64,000 nt of DNA from an uncultured Clostridia bacterium. Lineage in GTDB: Bacteria; Bacillota; Clostridia; UMGS1883. The translations under genes and the position numbers were made by a program. The first letter of the stretch is position 1. Each line of letters opens with the position of its first letter. The stretch covers positions 10,689-74,688 of the forward strand of contig CAKSNY010000002.1 in the NCBI GenBank assembly GCA_934476455.1, in the 5' to 3' direction. This document shows positions 3,909 through 53,527 of the stretch, piece after piece. The notes beneath the pieces were generated by a model. The model saw only the letters and a program-made list of their open reading frames with translations, had not been told where the DNA came from and did not search any database.

Positions 3909-4590
3909 TATAGATTTATTTTTAACGCCGCGGCTTAAAATGGTGGCAGATGCCGTGCCCGAAAGCCGCGTTGTATGTGACATCGGCACAGACCATGCGT
4001 ATGTGCCGATTTATCTTATAAAAAACAAAATCTGCCGAAGCTGTATAGCTGCCGACATAAGGAAAGGCCCTTTAAAAGCGGCGCAGGAAAATATAAAAAA
4101 ATTCGGCGTTGAAAATGATGTTAAGCCGCGTTTATCCGATGGGTTTTGCGCACTTTCGCAATTTGAAGCGGAAACCGCAATAATTGCGGGAATGGGCGGC
4201 GAAACAATAGCAAAAATTTTGGAAAAAGATACAGGCGTGAAAAATTTTGTGCTTCAGCCGCAGACGGCAAAGGCTTTTTTGCGCTTGTTTTTACAGCAGA
4301 ACGGATACCTTATAAAAAAAGAATATCTGTGCAGAGAGGGCGAAAAAATGTATGTGTGCATTTTTGCCGTGCGCGGAAAAATGCCCCCTCTTTCTGAAAC
4401 GGAGGCACAAATAGGACCGATGCTTATAAAAGAGCGTCCGCCGCTTTTTAAAGAGTATGTACGTTACAGAAAGCGCGAGATAGACTGTGCGCTTGAAAAA
4501 ATGCGCTTTGCAGGCAGCGCTTGGCATAGACGTGAAGAATTTGAAAATCTGAAAGCCGAGTATGAAAGGCTTATTGATGAAAGGGTGTGA
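3886..4590 (+). CDS. trmK: tRNA (adenine22-N1)-methyltransferase TrmK family
   Basis: YqfN/TrmK-like SAM-MTase motifs (VCDIGTDHAYVPIYL); true start possibly at 3940 (MVADAV). Confidence 0.7.
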   Translation: MRKLSLPDIDLFLTPRLKMVADAVPESRVVCDIGTDHAYVPIYLIKNKICRSCIAADIRKGPLKAAQENIKKFGVENDVKPRLSDGFCALSQFEAETAIIAGMGGETIAKILEKDTGVKNFVLQPQTAKAFLRLFLQQNGYLIKKEYLCREGEKMYVCIFAVRGKMPPLSETEAQIGPMLIKERPPLFKEYVRYRKREIDCALEKMRFAGSAWHRREEFENLKAEYERLIDERV

Positions 4591-4594
4591 AAGT

Positions 4595-5383
4595 ATGGTT
4601 TCGCTTAAAGAGATTGAAGCATTTTTGGAGGAAAGATTTCCGCCGCAGTATAAAGAAGATTACGACAATATCGGGCATCTGGCGGGATTTTCGGATATAC
4701 GGACGGAGAATGTGCTTTTATGCCTTGACGTAACGGCAGACGTTGTGCGCGAAGCGGCGGCACGCGGCGCCCGTATTATAATTTCGCACCACCCCGTAAT
4801 TTTTTCGGGGGTAAAAAGCATTACAGATGAAACACCGGCAGGGGAGGCGCTGCTGCTTAGTGCAAAGCTTGGAATGGGTATTTACAGCGCACACACAAAT
4901 GCAGACAGCGCGCCGAACGGATTAACGGATTTTATTGTGAAAAAGCTGGGGCTTAAAACTGTCGGTACGCTTACGGGTTCATTGGGAAGAATATGCGTGC
5001 CGAATACAAAAATGTCCGCCTCACAGCTTTGCAGCCGCATAAAAAAAGAATTTTTTGTAAAACATCTTTACTCCACGTTAAAAGAAGATCGCCCCGTAGA
5101 AAAAATAGCCGTTGTAAACGGCGGCGGGGGCGGCGATACGGCGCTGCTTGCAGCAGAGTGCGGAGCGGATATATACATATCGGGTGACTTAAAGCACCAC
5201 GAACATATGCTTTTCTCTTCGCTTCAAGGTATTGATTTTATAGAAATGCGGCATTATGACAGTGAGTTTTGCATAACGCAGCTTTTAAAAGAGGAGTTAA
5301 AATCCCGCTTTAAGGATGACCTCGGTGTGTTTATTTCCGAGAAAAACAAAAATCCTTTAATTGACACAGATAATATATTGTGA
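4595..5383 (+). CDS. Nif3-like dinuclear metal centre protein (YqfO family)
   Basis: MVSLKEIEAFLEERFP...NIG N-terminus and C-terminal HH motif; start moved to ATG 4595 directly after trmK stop. Confidence 0.8.
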   Translation: MVSLKEIEAFLEERFPPQYKEDYDNIGHLAGFSDIRTENVLLCLDVTADVVREAAARGARIIISHHPVIFSGVKSITDETPAGEALLLSAKLGMGIYSAHTNADSAPNGLTDFIVKKLGLKTVGTLTGSLGRICVPNTKMSASQLCSRIKKEFFVKHLYSTLKEDRPVEKIAVVNGGGGGDTALLAAECGADIYISGDLKHHEHMLFSSLQGIDFIEMRHYDSEFCITQLLKEELKSRFKDDLGVFISEKNKNPLIDTDNIL

Positions 5384-5389
5384 TAGAAT
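5361..5389 (+). promoter_or_regulatory. putative rnpB promoter (-35 TTGACA, 17 nt, -10 TAGAAT)
   Basis: hexamers at 5361-5366 and 5384-5389, 7 nt upstream of the RNase P RNA 5' end; overlaps end of Nif3 gene. Confidence 0.4.
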
Positions 5390-5395
5390 AACAGG

Positions 5396-5768
5396 GGTTA
5401 TAAGCAGCCTGAACGGTCGCGGCAGCGTATAAGCTGATGAGGAAAGTCCGAGCTACGCAGGACAGGATGCCGGAGAAATCCCGGTGAAGGCGACTTTAAG
5501 GAAAGTGCAACAGAAATAAACCGCCGCACCTTGTGCGGTAAGGGTGGAAAGGCGGGGTAAGAGCCCACCGACATTGCGGTAACGCAGTGTGCCATGTAAA
5601 CCCCATCCGTAGCAACGCCGACAGGATTGGCTTGTCCGGCCTATAATCCGAAGGGCGGCTGGAGCTGTGCAGAGATGCACAGCGTAGACAGATGACCGTT
5701 TCGGGGGTAAGGTGCAGAAAACATCAAGCCCCTATGACAGAACTCGGCTTACAGGGCAGCTTATAACA
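5396..5768 (+). ncRNA. rnpB: RNase P RNA (bacterial)
   Basis: universal P4 strands GAGGAAAGTCCGAGC (5'-side) and ACAGAACTCGGCTTACAG (3'-side); P1 pairing between gttataagcagcctg (5397-5411) and cagggcagcttataac (5752-5767). Confidence 0.85.
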
Positions 5769-5775
5769 TAAAAAG

Positions 5776-5818
5776 GGCGTGCGGCAAAGTGCTTTTATTT
5801 TGCCGCGCGCCTTTTTGC
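5776..5818 (+). terminator. intrinsic terminator downstream of rnpB
   Basis: GC-rich imperfect hairpin ggcgtgcggcaaa...tttgccgcgcgcc followed by ttttt. Confidence 0.55.
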
Positions 5819-5846
5819 ATTCCGGATTTTTTTAACACCCCTTTTA
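5810..5846 (+). repeat. partial copy (3' module) of the multi-copy intergenic repeat element
   Basis: cctttttgcattccggatttttttaacacccctttt matches the 3' module of the copies at 17366-17404, 47887-47923 and 53259-53300. Confidence 0.5.
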
Positions 5847-5938
5847 CGGTAAAATCTTTTAATTTCAGGCATATATTGACTTTTTCTTTGTTGTGTGGTA
5901 TACATAATAGTAGATAAAACTGCAAGGGAGAATAAATT

Positions 5939-7039
5939 ATGAAAAGGATTATTTCCTTTTTTGCAATTTTTATATTTATTTTTGGAGTAAATGCTTTTGC
6001 GTATGAGGATACGTTTGTTTCTCTTTCGGTAAACGGTATTTCGCAGGCACCGGACGGAAGCGTTTTTATACGCGACGGTATAACATATGCCGACGCCCGC
6101 GCCCTTTCGGAGGCTATGAACTATAGCTTTAAGGAATATTCAACGCATGACAGCGCGCTGATAAACAGCGGCAACTTGTCTGTGTGCATCACGCCCGAAA
6201 CAGATTATATAACGGTTGCAGACCTTACGGGAACTTCTATTTACGAATATGTTTTTCATAAGCTTTCGGCGCCGTGCCTTTATGCAAACGACAAATTTTA
6301 CATACCTGTGCGCGACTTTGCAAAGATTTTTAACTACTCGCTTAATTTCAGCCAGGAGCTTTTGACGGTATATCTTGACCGCAGCCAAAAGACATTTACC
6401 GCCGCACCTGTGGAGGATATTATAGGAGAGGCGCAGACGGAGGCATTGTTTATATTCGAGGGCAGCCAGCTGCCGGACGGGCATACGTACTTTTTCCAAA
6501 ACCAGGCGGAATTTGCACTGCCGAATTTTGGAAGCGGATATTGCTGGGCGTGTTCGTATGCAATGCTTTTGTCAAACGTTACCTTCTCGCGCATAACGCC
6601 TGCCGATGTTGCACAGATAAACCTGCGCCGTACAAAGAGCGGGGCGTATTGCTACCACTATGATATTATTTCGGAATACAATGTAAGTTTTGTTTCGGCG
6701 CTGCCGGAAAGCAGCCGCTATTACGGCGGGCGCGATATGGTGTCGGGCGGAACGTTTATAAAAAACCCCGAAAAAAGCGATACCGTTGTAATTGCCGCTC
6801 TCAGAGAGGCGCTGTCGCTGCACCCCGAGGGGATAATGGTGCGTTATGCGGGCTATCCGCATACAATGGTTGCGGTGGGCTTTGACCACGATAAAATAAT
6901 ATTTTACGACCCCGCGCCGACATCTTCTTCCGAGTACAGCGAAACGGGAAGATATATGGGCGTAGGGTTTGAGGAAACCTGCGTCGGCAAAAAAGGTTTT
7001 TCACTGTCTGATGTTACGTTTATACAGGCGATAAAATAG
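5939..7039 (+). CDS. secreted protein: signal peptide, copper-amine-oxidase-N-like stalk domains, C-terminal C39-like (BtrH_N-type) cysteine peptidase domain
   Basis: N-terminal signal MKRIISFFAIFIFIFGVNAFA; two stalk-like repeats; Cys motif GYCWACSYAMLLS and His motif HTMVAVGFDHD. Confidence 0.5.
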   Translation: MKRIISFFAIFIFIFGVNAFAYEDTFVSLSVNGISQAPDGSVFIRDGITYADARALSEAMNYSFKEYSTHDSALINSGNLSVCITPETDYITVADLTGTSIYEYVFHKLSAPCLYANDKFYIPVRDFAKIFNYSLNFSQELLTVYLDRSQKTFTAAPVEDIIGEAQTEALFIFEGSQLPDGHTYFFQNQAEFALPNFGSGYCWACSYAMLLSNVTFSRITPADVAQINLRRTKSGAYCYHYDIISEYNVSFVSALPESSRYYGGRDMVSGGTFIKNPEKSDTVVIAALREALSLHPEGIMVRYAGYPHTMVAVGFDHDKIIFYDPAPTSSSEYSETGRYMGVGFEETCVGKKGFSLSDVTFIQAIK

Positions 7040-16332: not shown

Positions 16333-16436
16333 AAAATCGCCTCCCATTCTTGTTTTTAATTATCGCATAAACAGACGGAAAAATCAAGGCATATGTGAAT
16401 ATACGTGCATAAAATACAAAAAATATAAAAAAATAC

Positions 16437-16465
16437 TTGCATTTTTACGCCCTTTCTGTTACAAT
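16437..16465 (+). promoter_or_regulatory. rpmB promoter (-35 TTGCAT, 17 nt, -10 TACAAT)
   Basis: hexamers at 16437-16442 and 16460-16465. Confidence 0.45.
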
Positions 16466-16510
16466 GTTAAATGCACGTTATGAAATGAATCCTAAGGAGG
16501 TAAAATAGAT

Positions 16511-16699
16511 ATGGCTAAATGTGATGTATGCGGCAAGGGCGTAACCTTTGGTATAAAGGTAAGCCACTCGCACAGAAGATCTAACCGTTCTTGGAAGCCC
16601 AACGTTAAAACAGTAAAGGCTGTTGTAAACGGCACACCCAAGACAATACACGTTTGCTCCCGTTGCTTAAGAAGCGGAAAAGTAGTAAGAGCTATATAA
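16511..16699 (+). CDS. rpmB: 50S ribosomal protein L28
   Basis: 62 aa, MAKCDVCGKG...SHSHRRSNRSWKPN signature. Confidence 0.9.
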   Translation: MAKCDVCGKGVTFGIKVSHSHRRSNRSWKPNVKTVKAVVNGTPKTIHVCSRCLRSGKVVRAI

Positions 16700-16725
16700 C
16701 CACCTCTTAGATAGGGAACAATCAT

Positions 16726-16752
16726 AGGCAGCCCGTTTGGGGTGCCTTTTTG
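16726..16752 (+). terminator. putative rpmB terminator
   Basis: aggcagccc-gttt-ggggtgcct then ttttt. Confidence 0.4.
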
Positions 16753-16761
16753 TGTTGCAAA

Positions 16762-17084
16762 AAGGAGTTGTTTAAAAAGCCACAACCCGATAAGGAAGTA
16801 TTGGTTTTGAAAGCCGTTCTTTAAGTTTATACTTCGTAAACAGGCAGCCGTATACGTCAGTATTACGACTGCCTGTTTACTTGTCTAAATCTTAAATTCC
16901 GACCTTCAAAACTGCTTTGCACCCTGTAAACAATATTTTTTGATGAAGTTCAAGGCAAAAAAGCGAGTAATCCTGTCGGATTTCGAGCCTTTTTTAACGC
17001 TGAAATTCGCAAAAAAGATGTTTAGCAGGGCAATACTTCCTTGCCGGGCTGTGGCTAAAGCCATTGACTTTTAAACAACTCCTT
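16762..17084. repeat. ~320-nt intergenic segment closed by inverted repeats with nested internal helices (candidate structured ncRNA or miniature element)
   Basis: outer IR aggagttgtttaaaaag (16762-16778) / cttttaaacaactcct (17066-17082); inner IR aggaagtattg (16790-16800) / caatacttcct (17029-17039); perfect 12-bp hairpin 16836-16880. Confidence 0.35.
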
Positions 17085-17091
17085 CGCTCAA

Positions 17092-17404
17092 GGGGATAGG
17101 AAAAAAAGATTCGGAACGGACAAACTTCAGGCATATTGGATTCTGTTGTATTATGCCACGCCCGAAGGTGTACATAACAGGGCATCCCGAAAACCAAAGG
17201 TTTTTGGGAAAAAGGAGATACAGCGCTGATTTCGACGCCCGAGAGGTGAAGTTTGTTCGTAGCAAAAAGGCTTATAAATACGGGAAAATCGGATATAATG
17301 AGATTTTTCTGCCAAAATCGAGTTTTTAAACTGTTTTTATGGTTGCAAGCTCTTTATTATAATCGCCTTTTTGCGTTCCGGACTTTTTTAACATCCCCTT
17401 TTTA
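17092..17404 (+). repeat. multi-copy intergenic repeat element, copy A (carries ~208-nt insertion at 17158-17365)
   Basis: 5' module ggggataggaaaaaaagattcggaacggacaaacttcagg + hairpin GGCATA..TATGCC, 3' module cctttttgcgttccggacttttttaacatcccctttttatt; 3' T-run overlaps pyrR stop codon. Confidence 0.6.
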
Positions 17405-17941
17405 TTCGCACAAATCAACCTTATCCACACCGTCTGTTTCGGCAAGTTGTACGCGCACAATTTCGCTTTTTGACGTGGGTATGTTTTTCCCGACATAGTC
17501 GGCGCGTATCGGAAGCTCCCTGTGCCCGCGGTCAACAAGCACCGCAAGCTGAACCTTTGCGGCTCTGCCGCAGCTCATCACGGCGTCAAGCGCAGCGCGC
17601 ACCGTGCGCCCGGTATAAATAACATCGTCTACCAATATTACGTTTTTTCCCGTAACGTCAAAATCTATTGCGGCGCAGTTAACATTCGGTTCACCGGAAA
17701 TATGCGTTAAATCATCACGGTAAAAGGTTATATCAATTGTTGCCGTAGGAACGCTTTTCCCTTCAATCGACATAATGCAGTCGGCAATGCGGCGGGCAAT
17801 GGGTACGCCGCGTGTTTTTATTCCGATAAGGCAAAGCGCGGATAAATCGTCGTTTTTTTCGATTATTTCGTGTGAAATTCTTTTTATTGTACGGGAAATG
17901 GCGCTTGCGTCGAATAAGTCTGCCTTTTTTATTTTAAGCAT
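17402..17941 (-). CDS. pyrR: bifunctional pyrimidine regulatory protein PyrR / uracil phosphoribosyltransferase
   Basis: PRTase motif VILVDDVIYTGRT and PyrR N-terminus; start set at MLKIKK (17941) with AGAGAGGTGG RBS. Confidence 0.85.
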   Translation of the reverse strand: MLKIKKADLFDASAISRTIKRISHEIIEKNDDLSALCLIGIKTRGVPIARRIADCIMSIEGKSVPTATIDITFYRDDLTHISGEPNVNCAAIDFDVTGKNVILVDDVIYTGRTVRAALDAVMSCGRAAKVQLAVLVDRGHRELPIRADYVGKNIPTSKSEIVRVQLAETDGVDKVDLCE

Positions 17942-18172
17942 TGTAAAAGCCACCTCTCTTTTGTTATCTTAATATAACACAGCATCCCGAAAAAGTAAAT
18001 ATTTATTAAAAAAATAGCGGCTGTTTTCACGATATTTTATTTTTTTGCCCCGTCCCTGCAAAAAATCTGCGGTAAAGCTAAAAAAATGTAACCTGCCGCG
18101 CGCAGGAACACGGAAAAATTTTCTTTACTACTGTTAAAATTTGTGCTATAATCAAACGAAGAGGTGATATGT

Positions 18173-32670: not shown

Positions 32671-33462
32671 ATGAAGAGCGAGGAAATAAAGCTGAAAGCA
32701 GACGAAAGCTATATGAATGTAATTCGTTTCGGAAACGGCAGCAAAAATTTAATTATTATATCCGGCGTCAGCCTTACGGGTCTGGAGGGGCAGGGGGAAG
32801 CAGTAGCCGAAGCATACAGCACTTTTTGCGGGGAATATACCGTCTGTCTGTTTGAACGAAAAAAGGTTCTGAGGGAAAAATACAAAATTTTTGATATGGC
32901 AGAGGATGTTAGAAAGGCTATGGATATGCTTTCGATAGACAAAGCGTTTGTTTACGGTGTTTCGCAGGGCGGTATGATAGCACAGGTGCTTGCAATAAAT
33001 TATCCCGAAAGAGTGGAAAAAATGGCGCTTTGTTCGACAATGTGCCGCCCCACCGAAACGCTGAAAGGCGTGGCGGGAAGATGGATGCGCCTCGCCGCAG
33101 AGCATAACGTTACGGAGCTTAACAAATGCTTTTTTAAGGATGTTTATTCCGCTTCCTTTTTGGAAAGCGTCAAAGAAAAGCTGCCGATGCTTGAAAAAGA
33201 GGGAACAGCGCAGGACTGCGAACGTTTTTGTATTTTGGTTAAGGCTCTTTACGATTTTGACGTGTATGACAAGCTCAGCCAGATAAAATGCCCCGTGTTT
33301 GTCATAGGGGATGAGGACGACTGTACGATAGGCGCGGAAGGCTCGTATGAAATAATAAAAAAGCTTAATTGCAGCAGATATATGTACAGCGGCTACGGAC
33401 ACGCGGTGTATGACGAAGCCCCCGATATTAAAGAAAAAATAAAAACATTTTTTGAAATGTAA
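32671..33462 (+). CDS. alpha/beta-fold hydrolase
   Basis: nucleophile elbow GVSQGG, 263 aa. Confidence 0.7.
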   Translation: MKSEEIKLKADESYMNVIRFGNGSKNLIIISGVSLTGLEGQGEAVAEAYSTFCGEYTVCLFERKKVLREKYKIFDMAEDVRKAMDMLSIDKAFVYGVSQGGMIAQVLAINYPERVEKMALCSTMCRPTETLKGVAGRWMRLAAEHNVTELNKCFFKDVYSASFLESVKEKLPMLEKEGTAQDCERFCILVKALYDFDVYDKLSQIKCPVFVIGDEDDCTIGAEGSYEIIKKLNCSRYMYSGYGHAVYDEAPDIKEKIKTFFEM

Positions 33463-33506
33463 ATAAAAAAGCAGCACCAACCTAAAGGTTGATACTGCTT
33501 TTTTGG
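33458..33506. repeat. 49-nt perfect direct repeat, copy 1 (contains bidirectional terminator hairpin)
   Basis: tgtaaataaaaaagcagcaccaacctaaaggttgatactgcttttttgg identical to 33871-33919. Confidence 0.7.
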
Positions 33507-33870: not shown

Positions 33871-33919
33871 TGTAAATAAAAAAGCAGCACCAACCTAAAG
33901 GTTGATACTGCTTTTTTGG
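33871..33919. repeat. 49-nt perfect direct repeat, copy 2 (overlaps tRNA-Pro CCA end)
   Basis: identical to 33458-33506. Confidence 0.7.
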
Positions 33920-33993
33920 TCGGAGTGGCGGGACTTGAACCCGCGGCCTCTTGGTCCCGAACCAAGCACGCTACCAAACTGCGCTACACCCCG
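33917..33993 (-). tRNA. tRNA-Pro (anticodon CGG)
   Basis: reverse complement gives CGGGGTGTAGCGCAGTTTGGTAGCGTGCTTGGTTCGGGACCAAGAGGCCGCGGGTTCAAGTCCCGCCACTCCGACCA; anticodon loop TTCGGGA, T-loop GGTTCAAGTCC, encoded CCA. Confidence 0.85.
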
Positions 33994-47750: not shown

Positions 47751-47777
47751 TAAGGGCATTAAAACCAAAATTTAAAA

Positions 47778-47820
47778 GGAGCGGTTTAACGTCAATTGAC
47801 GTTAAACCGCTCCTTCATTT
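47778..47820 (+). terminator. intrinsic terminator (perfect 16-bp stem)
   Basis: ggagcggtttaacgtc-aatt-gacgttaaaccgctcc followed by ttcatttt. Confidence 0.6.
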
Positions 47821-47822
47821 TA

Positions 47823-47923
47823 GGGGATAGGGAAAAAAGCTACGGAACGGACAAATTTCAGGGATAGTGCAATAGAACTCAATATACCTTTTTGCGGTCC
47901 GGACTTTTTTACAGCCCCTTTTT
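47823..47923 (+). repeat. multi-copy intergenic repeat element, copy B (compact ~100-nt form)
   Basis: ggggatagggaaaaaagctacggaacggacaaatttcaggg...cctttttgcggtccggacttttttacagcccctttttat; 3' end supplies the last codons and stop of the convergent gene 47909-48595. Confidence 0.6.
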
Positions 47924-53258: not shown

Positions 53259-53363
53259 ACAAAAAAGGGGATGTAAAAAAAAGCTCAGAACGCAAAAAGG
53301 CATATTGGGCTTTATTACATTATGCCTGAAGTTTGTCCGTTCCGAAGCTTTTTCCCTATCCCC
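53259..53363 (-). repeat. multi-copy intergenic repeat element, copy C (minus strand)
   Basis: reverse complement reads gaggggatagggaaaaagcttcggaacggacaaacttcaggcataatgtaataaagcccaatatgcctttttgcgttctgagcttttttttacatccccttttttgt. Confidence 0.6.
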
Positions 53364-53527
53364 TCGAAGAAACGAAATTCGAGAATTTGGGGAGTTGTCA
53401 GAGGGGATTTCCCCTCTGACGTAAAAAAACGCGGTTTTCGCGGGCGTGCAGTGCCGGCCCTTGTTCTCAAGCCGAAAGCTCGCTTTCGGAGCTTTCGGCT
53501 TGAAACGTGTCGGTATAGCCGACACGC

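Follow-up and report, generated by a model that had tools for sequence, protein, structure and literature searches.

A probable 279-nt miniature inverted-repeat transposable element nested in the predicted pyrR terminator hairpin of an uncultured Clostridia bacterium

Between the convergent genes rpmB and pyrR of an uncultured Clostridia bacterium (GTDB lineage Bacteria; Bacillota; Clostridia; UMGS1883) lies an intergenic segment filled with nested inverted repeats, and the question is what kind of element folds in this way. The segment occupies positions 16762-17084 of a 64,000-nt stretch of contig CAKSNY010000002.1 (assembly GCA_934476455.1, positions 10,689 to 74,688 of the forward strand), here denoted the window. 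An earlier note on this DNA had drawn attention to an unusually long rpmB-pyrR spacer of about 700 nt and had offered two readings of the repeats in it, a large structured RNA, for which the raiA motif and ROOL were suggested, or a mosaic of repeat modules as in arrays of repetitive extragenic palindromes (REPs) and bacterial interspersed mosaic elements (BIMEs). The spacer measures 702 nt, from the end of rpmB at 16699 to that of pyrR at 17402, compared with 119-133 or 164 nt in relatives. We consider it very likely that the segment is a 279-nt non-coding MITE (miniature inverted-repeat transposable element) nested in the loop of the pyrR terminator hairpin. Its inverted repeats are two layers of different origin, a host hairpin and an insert.

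All the pairings described earlier were recovered, with offsets of a few bases. The outermost pair is perfect over 16 bp and joins 16762-16777 to 17069-17084, the partner having been placed before at 17066-17082. Inside it, 16778-16803 pairs with 17031-17056 (26 nt, 88%), and this second pair holds a perfect 12-bp run, 16792-16803 with 17031-17042, in place of the 16790-16800 / 17029-17039 pairing first reported. The perfect 12-bp hairpin noted at 16836-16880 is present as the core of a 17-nt stem (16836-16852 / 16864-16880, 94%). Two additional arms, previously unlisted, are formed by 16804-16828 / 16888-16912 and by 16922-16942 / 17010-17030, and the segment as a whole takes the shape of a Y, in which a long basal stem carries two hairpin arms, also long. 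Both strands were folded as RNA and judged against dinucleotide shuffles (n=100). The minimum free energy (MFE) is -133.5 kcal/mol for the plus strand and -152.6 kcal/mol for the minus strand, the shuffle means are -72 and -78, respectively, z is about -13 for each, and none of the 100 shuffles folds as well. Such a fold is what favours a large structured non-coding RNA (ncRNA) gene, or an RNA that regulates rpmB or pyrR in cis, with the Y under RNA selection; both strands, however, fold equally beyond chance, as a DNA palindrome would.

The two layers come apart in close relatives. The nearest relative of the window PyrR in the protein collection, P0001, is 99% identical, the next ones at most 76%. 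P0001 is encoded on two stretches from independent assemblies, L001 (Logan ERR10753961) and L002 (ENA ERZ15609988), whose DNA is 93-97% identical to the window, with unchanged gene order and an rpmB-pyrR spacer of 164 nt. Read in the rpmB sense, the rpmB terminator is followed there by AAAAAAAGAGCTGTTTGAAAAGTCCATTGACTTTTTAAACAGCTCCTT, a simple hairpin. Read in the pyrR sense, an uninterrupted hairpin, GGAGCTGTTTAAAAAGTCAATGGACTTTTCAAACAGCTC, then TTTTTTTGC, lies just downstream of pyrR, and the two together have the form expected of a textbook intrinsic terminator. In the window the hairpin arms are the same but are parted by 279 nt (16778-17056), which stand between ...GTTTAAAA and AAAGCCATTGAC.... 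Because L001 and L002 have the hairpin without the insert, the outer 16-bp pair is the pre-existing pyrR terminator stem and what lies inside it is an insertion. The earlier note had named absence from close relatives as a finding that tells against a structured RNA, and in L001 and L002 the same spacer is empty with its hairpin intact, a presence/absence polymorphism at an orthologous site as is typical of MITEs. A second candidate for an orthologous empty site, at 32.6 kb of the window versus L025, was dropped, the terminators there not being alignable. More distant relatives (PyrR 72-76% identical) keep pyrR and rpmB convergent, with the spacers of 119-133 nt and unrelated terminator hairpins.

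The host hairpin in the window is read on the minus strand. Its 5' half in the pyrR sense, including the original loop region AGCCATTGAC, spans 17059-17084, as delimited by the inverted repeat and by comparison with the empty site of L001 and L002. Its 3' half (16762-16777) and the U-run that follows (16757-16761, TTTTT on the minus strand) together span 16757-16777. From this arrangement, a palindrome of about 40 nt with a minus-strand U-run after it, we infer that it is the intrinsic terminator of pyrR and belongs to a palindrome type denoted here H1.

The insert itself is organized as a transposable unit. It is flanked by a dinucleotide, AA, at 16776-16777 and again at 17057-17058, the two copies of a target-site duplication recognized by comparison of flanks and, for the left copy, of filled and unfilled H1. 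It starts with the left terminal inverted repeat IRL (AGCCACAACCCGATAAGGAAGTATTG, 16778-16803) and finishes with the right terminal inverted repeat IRR (CAATACTTCCTTGCCGGGCTGTGGCT, 17031-17056). These 26-nt repeats, 88% complementary in the window copy, are conserved in all copies, each of which starts with AGCCACA and ends with TGTGGCT; the end sequence, AGCCACARCCCGRYAAGGAAGTATTG, is the one that any partner insertion sequence (IS) would be expected to match. Between the terminal repeats lie two hairpin arms, arm A (16804-16912), with its apical hairpin at 16836-16880 and an upper stem and loop, CGTATACGTCAGTATTACG, that are nearly invariant across the family, and arm B (16922-17030), which is itself nearly invariant. 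Only chance open reading frames (ORFs) of 44-52 aa overlap the element. MITEs are roughly 50-500 bp in size and lack a transposase gene, and the element shares with them small size without such a gene, terminal inverted repeats, a target-site duplication and many dispersed, similar copies.

To find these copies we scanned one genome per species (GTDB representatives) for the terminal-repeat pattern CCACANCCCGNNAAGGAAGTATTG, which gave 51 stretches, all in four species of metagenome-assembled genomes (MAGs) labelled uncultured Clostridia or Clostridiales. When these were compared with the 279-nt unit by BLAST, 18 full-length copies were identified, at 88-99.6% identity, together with deletion derivatives (internal deletions in L045 and L046, a 66-nt mini-version in L053). 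Several copies end at the arm A apex, where they are joined to other repeats, and many remnants of 28-58 nt lie at contig ends, as is expected because the repeat breaks short-read assemblies. A scan of gut metagenomes with the arm B apex motif gave 28 stretches, 13 of them with further full-length copies, several at loci already found in MAGs. Overall, dozens of copies, 86-99.6% identical, are dispersed at unrelated loci in MAGs of gut Clostridia and in human-gut metagenomes; there is one in the 64-kb window and, by pattern scan or BLAST, none in viral contigs or phage records. The copies of the CAKSFM MAG are 95.7-98.2% identical to the window copy, although the orthologous genes of that MAG reach only 73-83%. 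Since copies are far more alike across species than the host genes are, spread appears to have been recent and partly horizontal. A divergent subfamily in metagenome contigs of JABLTO01 (L058, L079 and L081) is 87-89% identical over the matched part and has a different terminal-repeat tip (...CCTTGTCCGGTGGCGGC); this shows that the age and breadth of the family exceed those of the four MAG species.

Almost every copy stands in the apical loop of a hairpin that is palindromic or terminator-like. The dinucleotide adjacent to the element is AA for 41 of 47 distinct insertions, with TA and TT at 3 each; counted by side, over 47 distinct flanks on the right and 46 on the left, it is AA in 41, and the others are almost all TA or TT, two to three of each per side. 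H1, a 40-nt palindrome that is found repeatedly, has the sequence GAGGCTGTTTAAAAAGTCAATTGACTTTTTAAACAGCCTC; its unfilled forms, in L031 and L050, contain five A's, the filled H1 reads four A's, the element and three A's, and the duplication is therefore of 2 bp. An indel of MITE type with target-site duplication, the other finding that had been said in advance to tell against a structured RNA, is thus present. A longer duplication (AAAGYCA), or half of H1 travelling with the element, was rejected because copies in non-H1 sites are without those bases.

Empty sites were rebuilt from the two flanks, put together with one AA taken out. Of the 21 sites so obtained, at least 15 have their insertion point within the apical loop of a strong hairpin, and most of these target hairpins are of the intrinsic-terminator type (A-run, GC-rich stem, T-run), H1, or a second palindrome, ...GCAGCAAAATGNGATTNCATTTTGCTGC.... 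The flanks also mimic the opposite end of the element, as in GGGGCTGTAGCA-AA-element-AA-AGTCACAACCCC (L007) and GAGGCTGTGGCT-AA-element-AA-AGTCACAG (L050). A match of at least 7 of 12 positions to the opposite end was found for 15% of flanks on the right and 30% on the left, versus 1.6% of control sequence. Orientation within H1 is biased about 14 to 1, with the left end of the element toward the outer stem.

Perfect palindromes of the H1 type, about 40 nt long, were also seen at 47776-47815 of the window (variant GGAGCGGTTTAACGTCAATTGACGTTAAACCGCTCC), at L031:2223-2262, at L050:5287-5326 and at L022:2859-2890. In several species members of the H1 family are found again where terminators are expected, and no other site is so often chosen by the 279-nt element. 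Twice in the window H1 stands directly before a copy of a different repeat family, that of 17090-17403. H1 has the look of a terminator module of the SPRITE or REP kind, and it may itself be REP-like.

These features suggest how the segment could have arisen. The insert sits in the A-run at the apical part of the hairpin and has duplicated AA. A transposase supplied in trans would bind the terminal repeats and move the element, and it would prefer palindromic hairpins that resemble the abutted ends of the element, with a fixed orientation of insertion. The paired ends would keep the basal terminator stem beside the U-run. When one strand of the whole region is folded, the host stem, the ends of the element and both arms stack on one another, which gives the Y-shaped set of nested inverted repeats. 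The MFE fold of the minus strand closes the basal terminator stem beside the U-run, and the pyrR terminator is probably still usable after the insertion, to judge from this predicted structure. Because the element ends pair and stem and U-run stay adjacent, terminator loops may be tolerated, 'safe haven' sites for the element.

The behaviour recalls that of IS30. In E. coli IS30 makes a 2-bp duplication, uses near-palindromic hot spots, targets its own inverted repeats and observes a strict IRL-IRR orientation (PMC9333248). Of these behaviours we found in the element the 2-bp duplication as well as palindromic, terminal-repeat-like targets with a fixed orientation, the flanks mimicking IRR-AA-IRL junctions; the likeness is behavioural only. 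Since the partner element was not found, an IS30-like mechanism stays a lead by analogy, with no family assignment.

A partner was sought in several ways. Approximate terminal-repeat matching over all loci returned only known copies, and an all-against-all search for repeated segments of at least 500 nt in the loci returned only orthologous regions. Inverted end pairs 320-6000 nt apart matched twice, in L050 and L014, and both candidates were rejected. The L050 pair is a MITE carrying a nested insert; the L014 pair consists of a truncated and a full copy 2.9 kb apart, and the serine-recombinase-like gene between them is not plausible as a partner. A metagenome scan that required A or T after the terminal repeat, which excludes the MITE interior, found no partner. 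BLAST of the segment gave nothing in phage records and a single 52-nt match in PLSDB, to the arm B apex, on an Anaerotruncus plasmid; it was rejected as a partner IS as it belongs to a different hairpin family. Neither an IS30-type nor any other transposase with the ends of the element came up in these searches of loci, plasmids, phage, viral contigs and metagenomes. Between the truncated and the full copy the L014 stretch holds, at 4567-6783, an ORF of 738 aa that by eye has a large-serine-recombinase-like N-terminus (...VGYARIS...) and a SpoVT-like C-terminus; a fusion of genes, or an intervening element of a sporulation gene, may be what it represents.

Pairing within the element is maintained across the family. 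Over 28 distinct copies, bases are paired in 99.1% of the pair cells, and both partners differ in 11 pairs, a number that 0 of 500 shuffles reach. The apical stem of arm A (16841-16848 / 16868-16875), of which there are at least four variants, accounts for seven of these 11, and in L074 and L075, two divergent copies, the terminal repeats vary together, IRR pairwise with IRL. Compensatory changes of this kind, a check proposed with the structured-RNA reading, thus exist and count in favour of such an RNA, though they come without strand preference. In the window copy the minus strand has 10 G-U pairs versus 3 on the plus strand and folds 19 kcal/mol better, which would point to an RNA made from that strand. 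Family-wide, however, G.T and A.C mismatch columns number 12 each. Neither strand is preferred, the bias is peculiar to the window copy, and for this reason the strand argument was dropped. The T-runs of the host can be on one side of the element or on the other, and its orientation relative to host terminators is mixed.

Several points weigh against a plain MITE in a terminator loop. The 588 kb of loci, the viral contigs, the PLSDB plasmids, the phage records and the metagenome scan yielded no autonomous element that has these ends. The flank statistics rest on few palindrome families and so overstate the number of independent events, and the association with hairpin loops could partly reflect survivorship, insertions elsewhere having been lost, rather than targeting. 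Moreover, the complementarity of arm A is maintained, and a 'junk' MITE needs none. This complementarity could reflect a hairpin function, such as binding of a transposase or host factor, or homogenisation of the arms by template switching. A bolder account would have the family and its transposase actively home to terminator and H1 loops that mimic IRR-AA-IRL, 'safe havens' in which the terminator is kept, with arm A as a functional hairpin (a site for transposase or host factor on single-stranded DNA, or a processed RNA), and with horizontal spread among gut Clostridia going on now; we put this forward tentatively and think it somewhat doubtful.

A MITE by origin could also have been taken into service, this copy or the whole family acting as an extended terminator or 3'-untranslated-region stabiliser for pyrR, or as an outward promoter or small RNA from the arm A apex. 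We think such co-option unlikely. In its favour are the kept basal stem and U-run, closed in the minus-strand MFE fold, the covarying apical stem of arm A with its nearly invariant upper stem and loop, and a promoter-like TAGACA-17 nt-AATACT on the minus strand (16887-16859), whose hexamer columns are invariant or nearly so; yet the promoter match is weak (9/12), and the region exceeds shuffles in such matches anyway. Arm B is almost invariant even across subfamilies that are only 86-88% identical to the window copy, and recent spread explains this high conservation equally well. No orientation bias relative to host genes was seen.

The suggestion of a mosaic of repeat modules stands in part. 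The spacer is a mosaic built by transposon-type insertions, comprising a terminator, a MITE nested in it and a second repeat family adjoining, with arms shared as modules. The adjoining repeat, of a family different from the 279-nt element and outside it, lies at 17090-17403 and has the ends AAGGGGATAGGAAAAAAAG...CTTTTTTAACATCCCCTT and AAGGGGATAGGAAAAAAG...GCGTTCCGGACTTTTTTAACATCCCCTT. It fills the rest of the spacer, and the insert and this repeat together explain a spacer of 702 nt instead of about 120-165 nt; L001 and L002 have only its left ~40 nt. Further copies lie in the window at 47821-47923 and 53260-53375 (minus strand), with a partial one at 5808-5846. The 17090-17403 copy is about 314 nt long, other copies of that family about 105-115 nt. 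A fragment of the 3' module of this repeat had been noted within the segment at 16975-17005. In the window the resemblance is weak, amounting to the 10-mer CTTTTTTAAC at 16989 in the element and at 17383 in the neighbouring repeat and to one 19-nt match at 74%; elsewhere, other copies of the element and of the neighbouring family do have a motif in common, TCCGAGGCTTTTTAAC.

A strict array of the REP/BIME type, spread by a REP-associated tyrosine transposase (RAYT; an IS200/IS605-like Y1 transposase) or by recombination, is another matter, and we judge it very improbable. REP/REPIN units measure about 20-40 nt and have a conserved GTAG-type head and no duplication. The element is indeed extragenic, palindromic and modular, it is nested with other repeats (the insert in L050, the joins at the arm A apex), the host H1 is itself a repeated, perfect 40-nt palindrome, and the arm B apex is common to another hairpin family. 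It is not, however, a cluster of short palindromes without duplication: because the unit has a fixed length of 279 nt, inverted repeats of 26 bp at its two ends and a duplication that is consistently of 2 bp, it does not form a strict REP/BIME array. There is no tandem alternating array, and no RAYT gene was seen, although no systematic search for one was made.

A large structured RNA fares worst. With Rfam 15 at gathering score the whole window gave only RNase P RNA (5401-5767) and one tRNA, and 16400-17500 at E up to 10 gave only a chance match to a eukaryotic long non-coding RNA (15.7 bits versus a gathering score of 50), with no known family, the large Firmicutes RNAs included. The element resembles the raiA motif, ROOL, GOLLD, OLE and HEARO in its size of a few hundred nt and its extensive predicted structure; in contrast to them, it has no covariance-model match and is multicopy, mobile, strand-symmetric and absent from orthologous sites. 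A structured RNA, whether a gene of its own or a regulator in cis, is the least probable explanation of all and was refuted by the empty spacer in close relatives and the MITE-type indel with duplication, the copies standing at unrelated loci with a 2-bp duplication around each.

Of the two context genes, rpmB (16511-16699, plus strand) encodes ribosomal protein L28 of 62 aa, and its orthologue in L001 carries PF00830 (Ribosomal_L28). pyrR (17402-17953, minus strand), whose terminator holds the insertion, encodes 183 aa, and its homologues are named PyrR and have PF00156. The rpmB intrinsic terminator, read by eye and folded, consists of the stem AGGCAgCCC/GGGgTGCCT and then TTTTTG (16726-16752, plus strand). 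It is conserved in L001 and L002 and lies outside the mobile element.

Other repeats were seen along the way. The arm B apex, about 16951-17002, is about 82-85% identical to a different hairpin repeat of about 165 nt, TAGGGCTTGTTTGAAAA...TTTTTCAAACAGCCCCTA, present on an Anaerotruncus colihominis plasmid (NZ_CP094683; L003:1436-1608) and in gut metagenome contigs (L055, L059, L061, L064, L073, L077). Only the apex (GGCAAAAAA..GGAATCCTTTCGGATTCCGAGGCTTTTTAACGC) is common to this repeat and arm B; its outer arms are H1-like, the L061 copy occupies a terminator hairpin's loop, and a more divergent relative occurs in Subdoligranulum variabile (OY725877, OY725868). At L050:4946-5220 an inverted-repeat element of about 275 nt, with ends GGCATAACAGATTCGAAC...GTTCGAATCCGTTATGCC, lies inside a copy of the 279-nt element, and it is also found in L005, L028 and L035, joined to truncated 279-nt copies, indicating that several MITE-like families are nested in one another in these genomes. 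The partial copy of the 17090-17403 repeat at 5808-5846 is just downstream of the RNase P RNA gene. Two 49-nt direct repeats, 100% identical and 413 nt apart, lie at 33458-33506 and 33871-33919 of the window, each with a terminator-like hairpin, AAAAAAGCAGCACCAACCTAAAGGTTGATACTGCTTTTTT; the second abuts a tRNA gene (33920-33993, minus strand), and the pair may be a local duplication or a pair of attachment sites.

The closest known counterparts are other bacterial MITEs, such as the Correia elements (NEMIS) of Neisseria and RUP of Streptococcus pneumoniae, which like the element are of small size, code for no protein, have terminal inverted repeats and duplicate 2 bp of the target. The terminal inverted repeats of Correia elements are also 26 bp long. 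The element differs from described MITEs in its greater length (279 nt), its two internal arms, its duplication of AA rather than TA and its insertion into hairpin loops, and no sequence similarity to any described MITE family was found. As here, bacterial MITEs occur in dozens of intergenic copies, with presence/absence polymorphism, hairpin folding, deletion variants and nesting with other repeats (PMC10969869). Specific insertion into extragenic palindromic hairpins is known from IS elements that target REPs, namely IS1397/ISKpn1, ISPsy8, ISPa11, ISPpu9/10 and ISRm19/22 (PMC1525189); those, however, are full-length IS of other families in Proteobacteria, whereas here a non-autonomous unit goes into terminator-like hairpins and a 40-nt palindrome in Clostridia. 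In the SPRITE/BOX/RUP clusters of S. pneumoniae, repeated terminator-like hairpins and small intergenic repeats are inserted in one another (PMC10969869). Their sequences and host lineage are unrelated to ours, and the nesting described here is a precise transposon-type insertion with duplication. Among the top-ranked matches of the literature, which are weak evidence on this point, we found no description of a MITE for Oscillospiraceae or relatives, nor of one that targets terminator loops.

A MITE in a terminator is an ordinary kind of feature; what is unusual is the frequent insertion in hairpin loops. For this window a candidate large structured RNA is removed. With a z of about -13 and compensatory changes, such elements are strong false positives in structure-based ncRNA screens, and they also break MAG assemblies. 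Uncultured human-gut Clostridia have an apparently undescribed MITE family, the 279-nt element, and at least two further repeat families nested with it. If the preference for hairpin loops is mechanistic, the transposase would be a structure- or palindrome-selective integrase that spares terminators, and transposon biology, as well as tool development, would have some interest in it.

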